A stretch of 64,000 nt of DNA from Octopus vulgaris. Lineage: Eukaryota. Positions within the stretch are counted from its first letter, which is position 1. Every line of letters starts with the position of its first letter. The notes under the pieces are model-generated. The model was not told where the DNA came from. It ran no database searches and saw only the letters and a program-made list of their open reading frames with translations. This document shows positions 11,432-64,000 of the stretch, one piece after another. Made by a program: the position numbers and the translations under genes. Where the stretch lies: the NCBI GenBank assembly GCA_951406725.2, contig OX597817.1, positions 68,696,001 through 68,760,000 on the forward strand. Direction: 5' to 3'.

Positions 11432-12201
11432 TATGAGGTGGACTAGTTATGTTAAATAAAAAATAATTTATTTACTTAAGTTTTAATATCATCTTCTTTG
11501 AAATAGTCACCTTGTGCAGCAATACACTGGTCCAAGCATTCCTGTTCCTTTTGGAATCTGTTCTGGAAGTTGTTTTCTGTAAGTGAGGCAAGGACCTTCT
11601 GTGTTTTGCTCTGGATCTCAATGAAGGTATTAAAATCGCGACAGGTGCTAAATCTGGTGAATAGGGTGGGTGTGCAAATGATACTATGTTGTTCTGGGTG
11701 AGAAACTCATAAGTGAGAAGAGCTCTGTGAAGAATCTGATTCTTTGCCCTCCACAGATCCAGTCACTTTTGCTGAATGTCCTCCCTCAAACGTTTCAGAA
11801 CATTGCAGTAGAACTCTTGAATGATGGTCTAGCCCTGGGAGACAAGTTCACCGGGGGTGATTCTTATGTCAGATTTTCCACATTGCTTATCATCTTCCAG
11901 AGGTGTTCTTTTACTTTTGAAGGTTCTATGCCACTCAAAACAATGTGTGTGACCCATTGCCAAGTTTAACACAAAATTTCACATTGGCTCCTTGTTCTTG
12001 TCCATGATAAAATTGCAGACTACGGCATACACATGATCACAAAAACACAAATTTCACAACTTGCAAAGTAAACGCAGCAATGCCACTCAGCACACTGCCT
12101 CATGAAGGTTACTGCAAGCTTGCACTGGACATGCAACTCTGTGCTGCCATCTGTTGGCATGCTACAGAACTAGTCTGGAAAGTTTTTGATACCACTTCAT
12201 A
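11432..12201 (-). mobile_element. Internally deleted mariner element
   Basis: Ends TATGAGGTGG / CCACTTCATA (TIR plus TA). Minus strand encodes QEFYCNVLKRLREDIQQK, EFLTQNNIVSFAHPPYSPDLAP and DQCIAAQGDYFKEDD. Confidence 0.85.
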
Positions 12202-12462: not shown

Positions 12463-12859
12463 TGAGTGAGAGAGCAGTGCATGCCATCAAAGTGACCCTG
12501 GGGTACAATTATTTGAAACCCAATATACCCATTATGACTACCCATCTGATAAGGGTACACCAGGCACATGCATCACAAGGTTATCTCATATCAAGATAAA
12601 CAGCGCATGACCTTGCAGGTGGGTCCCAATTAGAATTTTCTTCTGGTCGAGTAGCCCATCCCACTCAAAAGGTCCCTGAATAAGGATTGTTTAAGGATGC
12701 TGAATGAACCACCCATGTTGCCAAAGGTGAATTATCCAAACCTCCAAGAATTCCTTTCAACACATGGCTATGATGCTCCCCCACTACTTCTGCTCATGGT
12801 CAGAGATGCACATAACATCAGCCACTAAGGGACATGGTCAACTGGTTAAGGTCAAACAA

Positions 12860-31864: not shown

Positions 31865-32389
31865 TGTTAATAATGCAGCCAGCTGACAGAATCATTAGCA
31901 TGCTCAGAAGCATTACACCTGTCTTCATTTTCTGAGTTCAAATGCCACAGAAGTCAACTTTGCCTTTTGTTTCTTTGACGTCAATAAAATAATTAACAAT
32001 GAGCACAGGGGTTGATATAATTAACTTCCCAACCTCTCACAGTTACTGGTTTTGTGTCAAAATTAGAGACTTCTATGTTTTTGTATTACTTTTTTTATTC
32101 ATATAATTTGCCACAAGGGCATTACATAGAAGGGAAGCTGCAGCCTGGACATAGACATAATGTTATGAAATGACAAATGAAAATGATGATAAATGAGGAC
32201 AACAAGCAACGCCCAACGATTGCTGTTTACCCAAGAACATTGCTCTTTTAAACCTCATACATTTTTCACAGTTCAATATAAAATTAATTTATGAGGCAAC
32301 AAACCTCTTACATTTTTCATAATTCAATAACAAAAATGAGGCACCAAGCCTCTTACTTTTATTTTCAGTTATAAATGTATTACTTTTTG

Positions 32390-32735
32390 CCAGATTCCTG
32401 CTGTGAGAACGTGAGTTGAAACAGATATTGTTATATTTCGGGATAGCCATCTTTTTTTTTTACCAAATAAACATACATAAAATATATTTGTTCTTCACTT
32501 CAGATTTATTATTGTTCTTATTTTATGTCCTTTGTCTGGAAATCTTTCTAAAAAGACTAAACAGAACAGGAGGAGACACATGGGATGGAGAGTCACTGAA
32601 GAGGTCACAGATGCGTGACAAAAGATTTTCAGACAATAGATATAAAATAAGAGCAATAATAAATCTAAAGTGAAGAATGAACCTATTGTGCATGTGTTTA
32701 TTTAGCAGAAAAAAAAGAGCTTCCTGAAATATAAT
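32390..32735. mobile_element. Inverted-repeat cassette, family B (PLE pseudo-LTR-like)
   Basis: About 115-bp arms (32431-32548 versus 32621-32735) around a ~70-bp spacer; same architecture at 59880-60212; a terminal fragment at about 50265-50345. Confidence 0.75.
32592..32635 (+). ncRNA. Minimal hammerhead motif, family B
   Basis: GTCA CTGAAGA G GTCAC-AGATGC-GTGAC AAAA GATT TT CAGACA; GAAA is decayed to AAAA at a CpG, and is intact in the 60061 copy. Confidence 0.6.
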
Positions 32736-33862
32736 AGTAAGAAAATATTATTATTGTTGTTGTTATAAAGAGTGATGAATCCTTAGTGTTGGAACAAAAT
32801 GTGTTGAGGTATTTCTTCCAGGTCTTTACATTCTGAGTTCAAATCCAGCTGGGGTAAGTTTTAACTTTGATCGTAGGATTAATAAAATAAGATACCAGTC
32901 AAGTACGGTGGTCCATTAAATTGACTAACCCCTCCCTCTAAACTTCTACAACAGAAGACACTTATCCAAGGTGCCATGCAGTGGGTCTGAACCCAGAACC
33001 ATGTGGTTGGAAAGCAAACTTCTTACCATATAGCCATGCCTGTGTCTATCAGAATGATTAAGAAAATTATACCTTTAATAGAATGATAAATGGTTGTTTT
33101 ATTTCATGTTAATAAAACTGTTATTATTTTATTCGTAATTATGATTTACTTAAATCGCTTAAACAGAGCATGACATTGAAGGTGTTGAAGTGATATTGTT
33201 ATCGTTAAGTAAGAAAAGATTTGTTTATGATGTTATTGATTGATGATTATCAGAATATAAAGTGATTAGGAGAAAGAAAATATATCCTCGGATGATGGCA
33301 ATGCTGGTTTCAAAAATAAAGTAGCCAATTTAGAGATGCAGGCATAACTGTGCCTGTGTGGTAAGAAGTTGGTAAGAAGTGTGGTAAGAATTTTGCTTCC
33401 TAGCTATGTGGTTCTGGGTTAGTCCTACTGTGTGACACCTTTGGCAAGTCTCTTCTACTATAGCCCTGGGTTGACCAAAGCCTTATGAGTGGTTTCAGTA
33501 GACAAGAACTGAAGAAGCCTGTCACATGTCTATATATATATATATATATATATATGCTTGGTTTCTATGTTGTTAACAGCAAAAACATCATGAGAGGCAA
33601 GGGATGAGTCTGGGGAGCCTGTAACTTGTTTTAAAACATCTATTAATCAAATATTTCAGTGTCAGCAAGGTTTGCTTTCTTCAGGCCATATATAGAGAGC
33701 ATTCTTCTGTACAATTGCAAAGTGGATGGTCACGAAGCTTCAATGATGCATTGATAGTATTTACATCTGGTTTTTCATGTGGGCTTAAGACATCTCTAAT
33801 GGATGCATTCCTTCCATCTCTGCTACTGTAGCTCAATGTAAGGTAGGCTTTACTGGATACTC

Positions 33863-50231: not shown

Positions 50232-50263
<32 letters not shown>

Positions 50264-50583
50264 TTATGAATTGGTGTTGCAGGACTCCTGATGAAAAATC
50301 GTGTGTTGAAACATATTGTTGTATTTCGGGATAGTCACATTTTTTTTTACCATTCCTATATATATATACATATATATATATAAGATAGATAGATAGATAA
50401 ATAGATAGATAGGCAGGCATACAGACATACAGACAGATAGATAGTAGCTGTTAATAACACTTATAATGAAAGGAAGAGAATAATGAGAGCAATTACCTAA
50501 TAATTCTTCAAGATTGAAATAGAACAGGTGTATATGCGTGAGTATATGAATGTGTGCAGAAACGTAAATATGTGCTAGTTAGC

Positions 50584-59826: not shown

Positions 59827-59867
<41 letters not shown>

Positions 59868-59879
59868 TATGAGTTTGTG

Positions 59880-60212
59880 TTGCAAGATTACTGATGTAAA
59901 ACCATGTGTTAAAACTGATACTGTTGTATTCCGGGATGGTCATTCTTCTTTTTTTTTTGGCCAAATAAACACATGCACTGTATATTCGTTCTTCAGTCAT
60001 TTATTACTTTTCTTATTATAATGGACTAAGCAGAACAGGAGAAAACATGAGGATGGAAAGTGTTGCTAAAGAGGTCATAGATGTGTGACGAAAGATTTCC
60101 AGACAATGGACATGAGCTAAAAGAAGAACAGTAATAAACGTGTGAAGAACTAATATATAGTGCATGTATGTATTTGGCAAAAAAAAAATGACCATCCCAA
60201 AATATAACAATA
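59880..60212. mobile_element. Inverted-repeat cassette, family B, second copy
   Basis: Arms about 59922-60017 and 60115-60212; spacer homologous to 32550-32640. Confidence 0.75.
60061..60105 (+). ncRNA. Minimal hammerhead motif, family B
   Basis: TGTTG CTAAAGA G GTCAT-AGATGT-GTGAC GAAA GATT TC CAGACA; the G5-to-A lesion here is intact in the 32592 copy. Confidence 0.6.
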
Positions 60213-60619
60213 TATGTATAAATATGTTTGTGTGTGTGTGTGAGTATGCATGTTCAAGGCTGTGTATAGGTGCAGGCATGGATGTGTGGTAAGAAGTTAT
60301 CTTCTGAACCACATGATACTGGGTTCAGTCACACTGCATTTCACCTATGGCAAGTGTCTTCTCCTATAGCCCTGGGCCAACCAAAACCTTGTGAGAGGGT
60401 TAGGTAGATGGAACCTGAACTGTTGAATGGAAGGCTGTACCTAAATAACCTTCCTTGTACAGCCATGCTTAGTTCTACGCCTATCATTGTTGGTCGAGGT
60501 ATTAGACAGAGTGCTACCAGAATGACTGGGTGCAAGATGTTGCTGAGGTTATTGCCAGCATTGGTAATCAATGGCAACTTTATGTGTACACACACACACA
60601 CACACATTTATATATATAC

Positions 60620-62316: not shown

Positions 62317-63807
62317 TTGAAGAAAGATTTTCTTAAAAAATTATTAAATGTTTAAAAGAAAATTTTAAAAAACAGAACAGAATGATGCTAACAGTTTGAA
62401 AATTGTATATACATTTATATGTGTGCATACATATACTTATAAACACACAAACACAAGCTTAACACATATTGGGTGTATTAGTGCATATGCATATATATAT
62501 ATGATATTGTTGCACTTTCATACGTGCACCACTTGCCTGCTCTTGTAACCTAAATACCTATTCTAGTGTATAGTTATTGCTATTCCATTAGGTAACTCAA
62601 TATAAACAGATCTATCTATGTACTGAAGCATATTATTTGAGTATTGTTATGGTTGGATGCTTCCTATGCTACTTATCTACTTCTCCATATATTCTTTATG
62701 ATGAGGTATGGTAAGAGCTAAATAACTAACGTTTGTTTTAGCTTCTGATTACTTTGCAGTCAAAAGACAGCGATATGTCTTCAGTCTTTCTTGGAGGTAA
62801 TAATGAGTTGAAGTATTCACAGAAGGTGATAACTGGTATTAGAATTTTTGTTTGGGTTATTTGTTGGTTGTTGGCAGTTTACTTCTCTAGTATCAGGCCG
62901 GTACTTATTTTCTAGATCACCAGACATCATGATCATGATCATCATCATTTTAATGTCTTCTTTTCCATGTTTGCATGGGTTAGACATAATTCTGTGAAGC
63001 AGATATGCTACAGATGGATGCCCTCCCTGTCACCAACCTTCATTTGTATCTGAAGCAGGCAACATTTCCGCATGAGTGGACATAATTGGTGATGAATAAC
63101 TCCACTTGTATGCTTGCGGTACTCATTAGCAACTATCACATGATACTTCTTTCAGTGTCGGTCTGCCAAACCCACTCACAAGGCTTTGGCTGGCCAGTGG
63201 CCTAGGTAGAAGACACCTGGCCAATATGTCATGCAGTAGTATGAACCCAAAACCACATGGTTGAGAAGCAAACTTCTTAACAACTAACCTCTATCTGCAC
63301 CTATGTAAAGTATATCATAATGGTAACAATAACTTCTAGCATAGGTACAAAAACCACAAATATGTGGTTGATGGCTTAATCCAGTATATCCATCCCAATT
63401 CTTGACTGGTACTTCATTTGATGACACCTCCACCCACCCAAGGGATAAAAAGCAAAGCTGATTCCAATGGGTTTTAATCTCAGAATGTAAAGAGTCAGAA
63501 CAAATCCTGCAAGGCATTTTTTCTGAGGCTCTAATGATTTTGCTAATTCACTGATCTCAATGATAATGATAGTAATTCTTTCTGCTGTAGACACAAAGCC
63601 TGAAATCTTTTAGGGGAGGGGGCTGGTCGACTATAATGACCCCAGTACTCAACTGGTACTTATTTGATCAACCTCGAAAGGATGAAAGGCAAAGCTGACC
63701 TCAGTGGAAATCAAACTCTGAAGACAAATGGATAAAACACCCTTAAGCATATTGTTCAATGCACTAATGATTCTGCCAGCATACCACCTTCATGATAATA
63801 ATAATAG

Positions 63808-64000
63808 GAAGAGCATCATAGCCATGTGTTGAGAGGGATTCTTTGGGGTTTGAATAATTCACCTCTGGAAACATGCGTGTTTCATTCAACACCCTTAAAC
63901 AACCCTTATTCAGGGACCTTTTGAGTGGGATGGGTTACTCGACCAGAAGAAAATTCTAACTGGGCCCCACCTGCAAGGTCATGTGCTGTTTATCTTGATA
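63808..64000 (+). mobile_element. Second copy of the 12463-12860 element, running off the window
   Basis: Reverse-complement match to 12588-12780. Confidence 0.8.

Follow-up and report, generated by a model that had tools for sequence, protein, structure and literature searches.

Insertions of Penelope-like elements (PLEs) are described, in the excerpts of the literature drawn on here, as 5'-truncated, often lying beside an inverted 5'-truncated copy, with a tail of 30-40 bp at one end and with microsatellites as targets (PMC8557442). The element studied in the anole cleaves and extends both strands of its target, ribozyme cleavage not being needed, and its reverse transcription starts at two internal sites inside a stem-loop that is AC-rich, the spacing of the two starts giving the tail (PMC11167929). 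The minimal hammerheads carried by PLEs are reported to be of low activity and active only as dimers; their published consensus has A, C or U as the extra core base, with one listed natural case of G, from Nasonia (PMC4209133). The same paper also reports pairs of minimal hammerheads that lie 100-700 bp from each other on opposite strands, ascribed to truncated PLEs, as well as a 5'-truncated PLE whose second motif sits on the other strand. Among cephalopods, 235 Rfam hammerhead loci are given for the giant squid in the consulted text of PMC6962438, and a supplement of PMC13282606 assigns 6.83% of the Octopus vulgaris genome to Penelope-type elements, in 190 families.

We analyzed a 64-kb stretch of O. 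vulgaris DNA (hereafter the window), which is AT-rich, microsatellite-rich animal DNA. The locus at 32371-32735 is read, at a probability of roughly 80%, as an old, decayed head-to-head pair of a ∼245-nt hammerhead repeat, that is, an inverted pseudo-LTR pair of the Penelope type that was likely produced by one insertion. Like the insertions of EN+ Penelope-like elements, as excerpted from PMC8557442 and PMC11167929, it places an inverted 5'-truncated copy beside a direct copy with the 3' ends outward; the family further shares with them (TA)n targets, a tail confined to one end, an AC-rich 3' end and a hammerhead in the sense of the element, ∼100-170 nt inside the 3' end. Unlike those insertions, the octopus unit has no ORF in or near its copies, and its 5' start is recurrent. 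Its tail measures 50-60 nt, against the published 30-40, a length that counts among the evidence against a single insertion of PLE origin.

The repeat unit and its copies

Three sources supplied the evidence at the level of the family: the copies in the window, the contigs that four public runs provide (80% likeness, three species labels) and spurious ORFs of other copies. The contigs show neither RNA ends nor strand nor level; the RNA nature of one run, X20, is a guess, and its profile is similar to those of the DNA runs.

In a self-search of the window, the inverted cassette at 32387-32734 recurred 27.5 kb away, at 59880-60207 (70% identity, E 4e-40), so that the two cassettes of minus-oriented tail followed by plus copy, placed ∼27 kb apart in a first-pass annotation made from the letters of the sequence, are confirmed. 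The first cassette begins near 32371 rather than at 32390, where that annotation had it start, and its arms match each other with an E value of 2e-25 (98 nt at 82% complementarity). Both cassettes (32371-32735 and 59865-60217) are inverted pairs built from one ∼245-nt repeat unit. A third, truncated copy, previously overlooked, was recovered by the self-search and arm alignment at 50262-50352; a profile of the three copies gave no further convincing copy in the window, the next best match having an E value of 0.063. The copies consist of the following parts:

32371-32548, minus strand: left arm of the first cassette, an inverted 5'-truncated copy including the tail, 3' end outward; outer edge approximate (decayed)
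32549-32554, no strand: inversion junction of the first cassette, overlapping the beginning of the plus copy, whose first bases are decayed (32553 A>T in contigs)
32550-32735, plus strand: right arm and loop, a plus copy bounded by the recurrent 5' start and a tail-less 3' end (self-search, contigs, arm alignment)
50262-50352, minus strand: solo 5'-truncated copy, the 3'-most 90 nt, within a (TG)n/(TA)n microsatellite
59865-60021, minus strand: left arm of the second cassette with a tail of ∼50 nt, adjoining (TA)n and stopping before the hammerhead
60020-60217, plus strand: plus copy of the second cassette, with a hammerhead core at 60066 (G5>A) and a predicted cut after 60099

Alignment of five arms gave the layout of the unit, which comprises the start near 32550, the hammerhead HB, an A-rich spacer and the AC-rich 3' end. 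The plus copy of each cassette extends from this start as far as a 3' end that is missing its last 50-60 nt; the minus copy keeps the full 3' end and is truncated on its 5' side. Both plus copies begin GACTAA.CAGAACAGGA, as had been observed, but the start that they share lies ∼4 nt earlier, near 32550-32551.

The copies at 59865-60217 and 50262-50352 have a common outer end, and both abut (TA)n or (TG)n; the remaining one of the three, at 32371-32735, lies in AT-rich DNA that is not a microsatellite. No target-site duplication was seen at the window copies in the arm alignment. A MITE or fold-back DNA transposon with a hammerhead captured by chance would likewise present long inverted arms in AT-rich DNA, as this locus does. 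Such an element is very hard to reconcile with arms that are unequal by 50-60 nt and have no symmetric ends, with a one-armed truncated copy that has the same end, with variable junctions (see below) and with the absence of a duplication in the alignment just mentioned.

Contigs from two other species labels span the right edge of the 32371-32735 copy, so the insertion is considered old. The four public runs contain thousands of related contigs, and the ratio of summed to single-copy depth points to unit copies in the thousands, this ratio itself being no copy number.

The hammerhead in the loop

The loop of the first cassette carries the hammerhead HB, all parts of which lie on the plus strand:

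32592-32634, plus strand: HB, a type I minimal hammerhead (contigs, descriptor scan, folds, published consensus)
32596-32602, plus strand: core, with an extra G at 32603, between A9 and G10.1
32604-32619, plus strand: stem II
32620-32623, plus strand: GAAA, with G12>A at 32620 in the 32371-32735 copy
cut predicted after 32629, plus strand: helix III, AGAUUU; UUC site in the family

Among type I hammerheads, HB is of the minimal sort that PLEs carry, with a cut site predicted from its sequence. With the minimal hammerheads of metazoan PLEs, as far as the excerpted text of PMC4209133 describes them, it has in common CUGANGA followed by one extra base, G10.1-C11.1, a long helix II, a short helix I and an NUH site. 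Its helix III is palindromic with an AU loop III, as in D. virilis in that source; AGAUUU is self-complementary with two G.U pairs, in agreement with the earlier reading of the sequence. It is unlike the published set in its extra base, G, and in a bulged A in helix I. The extra G between positions 9 and 10.1 is present in both window copies and in both readable contigs. As the published consensus, itself an 80% rule, has A, C or U at this place, the G marks HB as a variant; the consulted part of a review states that G as the extra core base was strongly detrimental in a viroid hammerhead (PMC3705267).

The core lesions differ between the two cassettes (G12>A at 32620 in the first versus G5>A at 60068 in the second), as the first-pass annotation had it. 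In the related contigs of the four runs, G is restored at 32620 in 67, 70, 70 and 66% of the depth, and no difference was seen at 32596-32603 among the best 40 of 102 contig difference rows. The canonical consensus core that had been proposed therefore holds with respect to G12, but the extra G between A9 and G10.1 makes it a minimal-PLE variant. Two further details of that proposal are revised. A change of 32614 C>T in 96-98% of the depth gives the family a sixth stem II pair and a GAUG loop, in place of a 5-bp stem with a 6-nt loop; and upstream of the core, where TGTCG had been given, three of the five readable copies (two from the window, three from contigs) have TC(A/G) after a purine run and the other two have TTG. 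At 32629, T>C is found in 79-85% of the depth of related contigs. A family without CUGANGA/GAAA or without stem II had been named as the outcome that would speak against the first-pass reading, and both G12 and stem II are restored in the contigs. P0003, an ORF of another copy, encodes LKRSQ in the frame of the HB core.

In predicted folds stem II is formed with P 0.90-1.0, while helix I is unpopulated in either cassette copy (P at most 0.03), its pairing needing the bulged A. An A at 32595 leaves the 32371-32735 copy without the 1.1-2.1 pair, and the descriptor does not find this copy even when two mismatches are allowed. Since this pair is lost in addition to G12 and the descriptor fails, HB of this copy is likely inactive, judging from its letters. 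With a descriptor set post hoc (at most one core mismatch, stem II of at least 5 bp), 3000 shuffles of the second cassette produced a chance match in 3 cases, and 3000 shuffles of the loop and right arm of the first in 1. Rfam gave no hammerhead at the gathering score, nor in three focused scans with E values of up to 10; in an E-value scan of the whole window, no hammerhead was among the best 150 of 334 rows, nearly all of which were microsatellite hairpins. Decayed minimal hammerhead variants would be expected to escape Rfam.

Inversion junctions and the relation of the arms

The first-pass annotation left two courses for the family, namely that the whole palindrome, ribozyme and hairpin together, is a fixed mobile cassette in which the antisense arm regulates cleavage, or that a Penelope-type hammerhead unit repeatedly forms inverted pseudo-LTR pairs. 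The former would account for the plus-copy start and the outer left end being common to both cassettes, and these two courses differ in what they lead one to expect of the arms and junctions: a unit that moved whole should have arms that group by side. Over the 90 nt common to the four arms, five columns group by locus, one by side (a poly-T gap) and none crosswise, a 5:1:0 distribution that speaks against a fixed cassette. The five by-locus columns amount to four events, three substitutions and one indel, and a 5-nt block is absent from both arms of the 32371-32735 copy and present in the plus copy of the second cassette. Identity between arms within a locus (0.79 and 0.84) is barely higher than that between loci (0.77-0.81). 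Gene conversion could be an alternative source of the by-locus likeness.

The junctions, too, are variable. At least eight contig joints lead from the left arm into the plus copy (8 of the best 12 of 66 rows, from short contigs at 80% likeness), each joining a different pair of points, and none of them equals the junction of the 32371-32735 copy. Their left-arm ends lie near 32444, 32469, 32518, 32524, 32526, 32535 and, in two further rows, beyond the whole hammerhead, and their plus-copy starts near 32551-32555 (two), 32559-32560 (two), 32573, 32576, 32585 and 32587. In all four runs, 1.8-2.4% of the depth at 32531, which includes plain units, continues to 32553. With the two in the window, at least ten different junctions are thus on hand (two in the window, eight in the contig rows listed), and the single fixed junction that had been looked for was not found. 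Inverted pairs of this unit formed separately at many sites, with a variable junction.

It had also been proposed that the arm masks the cut site. The left arm of the first cassette reaches 32548, which lies opposite 32620, and in the predicted fold it pairs with the strand of helix III and helix I (8 of the 10 pairs sampled have P 0.85-1.0), so that masking in silico applies to this copy; in the second cassette the left arm stops ∼15 nt short of the cut site and fails to reach the ribozyme. Because the inversion recurs with a variable junction, the covering of the cut site by the antisense arm is incidental to the 32371-32735 copy. Taken with the arms and the junctions, this leaves a mobile palindrome highly improbable and already largely refuted, and the reading as a unit that repeatedly forms inverted pseudo-LTR pairs is supported.

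The many opposite-strand contig joints at 32545-32548/32610 were not counted as inversions and are read as ordinary units whose parts match different places of the reference. Separately, the contig joints 32603>32580, 32611>32584 and 32610>32550 suggest direct partial-tandem copies besides the inverted ones.

The tail and a motif antisense to the unit

The outer end of the left arm comprises a one-sided tail and, antisense to the unit, a hammerhead-like motif, HA, which the first-pass annotation had missed:

32371-32430, minus strand: tail, a 3' extension of ∼60 nt on the left arm only (the right arm stops opposite 32431)
32390-32445, plus strand: HA, hammerhead-like motif antisense to the unit; also at 59880-59940 (plus) and 50280-50335 (plus)
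32398-32404, 32418-32421 and 32430-32432, plus strand: HA parts in the 32371-32735 copy, namely a decayed core, GAAA and GUU, with a 3-bp helix III

The tail, present on one arm only in both cassettes (50-60 nt), has an A+C content of 59-65% on the sense strand of the unit. Its outer end is the same in the other window copies, and seven of eight spurious ORFs read through the tail and lose likeness there. These ORFs came from a HMMER search with 12 matches, of which eight were short unnamed ORFs, read as other copies of the unit; four multi-stretch matches (P0001, P0007, P0010 and P0012) were dropped, among which P0007 and P0012 are unrelated repeats. An ATG after the poly-A opens a frame of 26 codons to the 3' end of the unit (32370-32450 and 59866-59943, both minus strand) in two of three copies, the third being frameshifted. 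The tail as the start of a parent ORF was dropped, no long protein having been found behind this frame. In seven contigs of run X20, the stretch 32415-32441 is followed by a different spacer, which suggests that other subfamilies share the 3' end.

HA carries CUGAUG, GAAAC, a 3-bp helix III, GUU and six of eight helix I pairs, and the copy at 50288 (plus strand) is the only strict, perfect descriptor match on both strands of the 64 kb. These features raise the possibility of an ambisense mini-retroelement with a different self-cleaving hammerhead on each strand, the core of the second being unusual in its U9 or in two bases inserted at position 7, in which the inverted pair would put both motifs in one transcript and an RNA of ∼200 nt (32433-32629) would be released from host read-through. 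Several observations fit such an element. Of 3000 shuffles of the 91-nt end, 8 gave a one-mismatch match to HA, against 64 of 3000 for a whole cassette; in all four runs the HA and HB bins are ∼5- to 30-fold deeper than the arm between them, the HA bins being the deepest of the unit; and P0003 has the HB core frame and the tail within one ORF.

The core of HA argues otherwise. U replaces the conserved A9 in 9 of 11 HA copies, comprising two of the three window copies and seven of the eight ORFs, the latter read at the protein level: the codon overlapping position 9 is His in seven of the eight ORFs and in the 32371-32735 copy and Tyr in the second cassette, both equivalent to U9. HA was accordingly dropped as a canonical second hammerhead. 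Its stem II consists of only two weak pairs (A-U/G.U), the region is predicted to fold into another hairpin that buries the core, and the 1.1-2.1 pair is missing from two of the three window copies; conservation of HA would be expected anyway of a signal for the start of reverse transcription. An ambisense element is therefore unlikely, HA is likely a relic or a chance resemblance, and the perfect match at 50288 is likely a derived state. From the opposite-strand motifs in the available text of PMC4209133, HA differs in being another sequence rather than a mirror copy and in being without A9.

Retroviroid-like elements, such as the carnation small viroid-like RNA, have hammerheads in both polarities and are of a size like that of the octopus unit. 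The octopus unit departs from them in its non-canonical second motif and its PLE-like pattern of insertion.

Proposed origin and the nature of the template

For the preferred reading, an inverted pseudo-LTR pair of the Penelope type, the following course of events is proposed. A Penelope-like reverse transcriptase/endonuclease would nick both strands of an AT-rich target, and the same RNA would be copied inward from each side; each strand would prime one cDNA, at two start sites, and the two cDNAs would meet at their 5' ends, leaving the hairpin as a by-product of insertion. The templates would have been uncut, since the copies retain ∼80 nt upstream of the cut site. The recurrent start is best read as the 5' end of the RNA, which would represent either the beginning of a full-length element or an independent short transcript.

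The second of these templates would make the unit a non-autonomous mini-element standing alone, in the manner of a SINE or a retrozyme: a ∼245-nt transcript of its own would be amplified through tandem or circular RNA, and Penelope proteins would insert it in trans; the mechanism of insertion would be the same as above and only the template would differ. Non-LTR retrozymes, in the excerpts of PMC7229834 and 10.64898/2026.07.22.740005, resemble the octopus unit in being short and non-coding, in their similar size and type I hammerhead, in a likely derivation from PLEs and in their many dispersed monomers, and the latter source derives animal retrozymes from PLE pLTRs and includes dispersed monomers among them. 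The 5' start recurs in both window cassettes and in two of the eight listed junction rows, an opposite-strand joint at 32555/32589 occurs in three runs, and a joint restarting at 32550, in one contig each of X1 and X20 (among the best 15 of 262 rows), may be a head-to-tail repeat. The lack of a parent ORF is in keeping with such an element as well: none of the 31 window ORFs scanned (of 101) has an RT or GIY-YIG domain, and neither word-index protein searches with the tail and HB frames nor HMMER with the tail frame found a long protein that continues them. For the preferred reading, this lack of a linked RT or endonuclease is evidence on the contrary side, along with the absence of a target-site duplication in the arm alignment, the extra core G and the unpopulated helix I.

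Against a stand-alone element, retrozymes are defined in these excerpts by head-to-tail tandem units and circular RNAs, and the tandem array for which a check had been suggested is absent from the 64-kb window; the inverted pairs with a tail also differ from the retrozyme layout described in 10.64898/2026.07.22.740005. Four of the eight listed junction rows start 20-35 nt further in, like ordinary 5' truncations, and any unit sequence upstream of 32550 would lie outside what this reference can show. A template of this kind is a possible but tentative alternative to the front of a full-length Penelope-type element.

Other searches and neighbouring features

Our literature search found no paper on this family, nor any that describes a PLE end with two different hammerheads. 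One searched supplement file of PMC4209133 holds no octopus example, three short motifs of the unit are absent from the Craig 2021 supplement, and one is absent from the Octopus repeat supplement (PMC13282606). The family may already be catalogued in repeat libraries, the comparison here being with papers and supplements only.

A pattern scan of metagenomes yielded 21 loci, none similar to the unit by blastn, and there were no matches in prokaryote genomes or in viral contigs. Seven of the metagenome loci (L001, L004, L009-L012 and L014) have hammerhead-like cores with a GC-rich stem II, unrelated to the octopus unit; L009-L012 and L014 are near-identical to one another around the motif.

Within the window, the left flank (32166-32365) is a different, lower-copy repeat with an internal 45-nt spaced repeat, deep in runs X1 and X3 and nearly absent from X11. 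Very abundant SINE-like families occupy 32800-33055, 33392-33523, 60265-60419 and ∼45 other intervals, forming one linked cluster; the main dispersed repeats of the window are presumably akin to octopod SINEs, which they resemble. An inverted pair of a dispersed repeat at 12589-12798 and 63791-64000 (210 nt at 88%) has no hammerhead by descriptor. A weak DDE_3 match at 11475-11762 on the minus strand (E 7e-4, below the curated cut-off) is likely a Tc1/mariner remnant.

Significance

On its most likely reading the unit is of little consequence, adding one more hammerhead-bearing family to the Penelope-type elements, which are already abundant in octopus. If HA were to cleave, the two motifs would be the first ambisense ribozyme pair in an animal retroelement within the literature searched, and HA a new core variant. 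Were the ambisense reading true, the unit would be an animal counterpart of the plant retroviroid-like elements, brought to thousands of copies through Penelope proteins, and this would offer an explanation of how inverted PLE insertions are able to remain active. As inverted pairs of the Penelope type, the thousands of short copies, with their fixed 3' end, tail, recurrent 5' start and variable junctions, constitute a natural sample in which the two-strand model of PLE priming could be tested from genome data alone.
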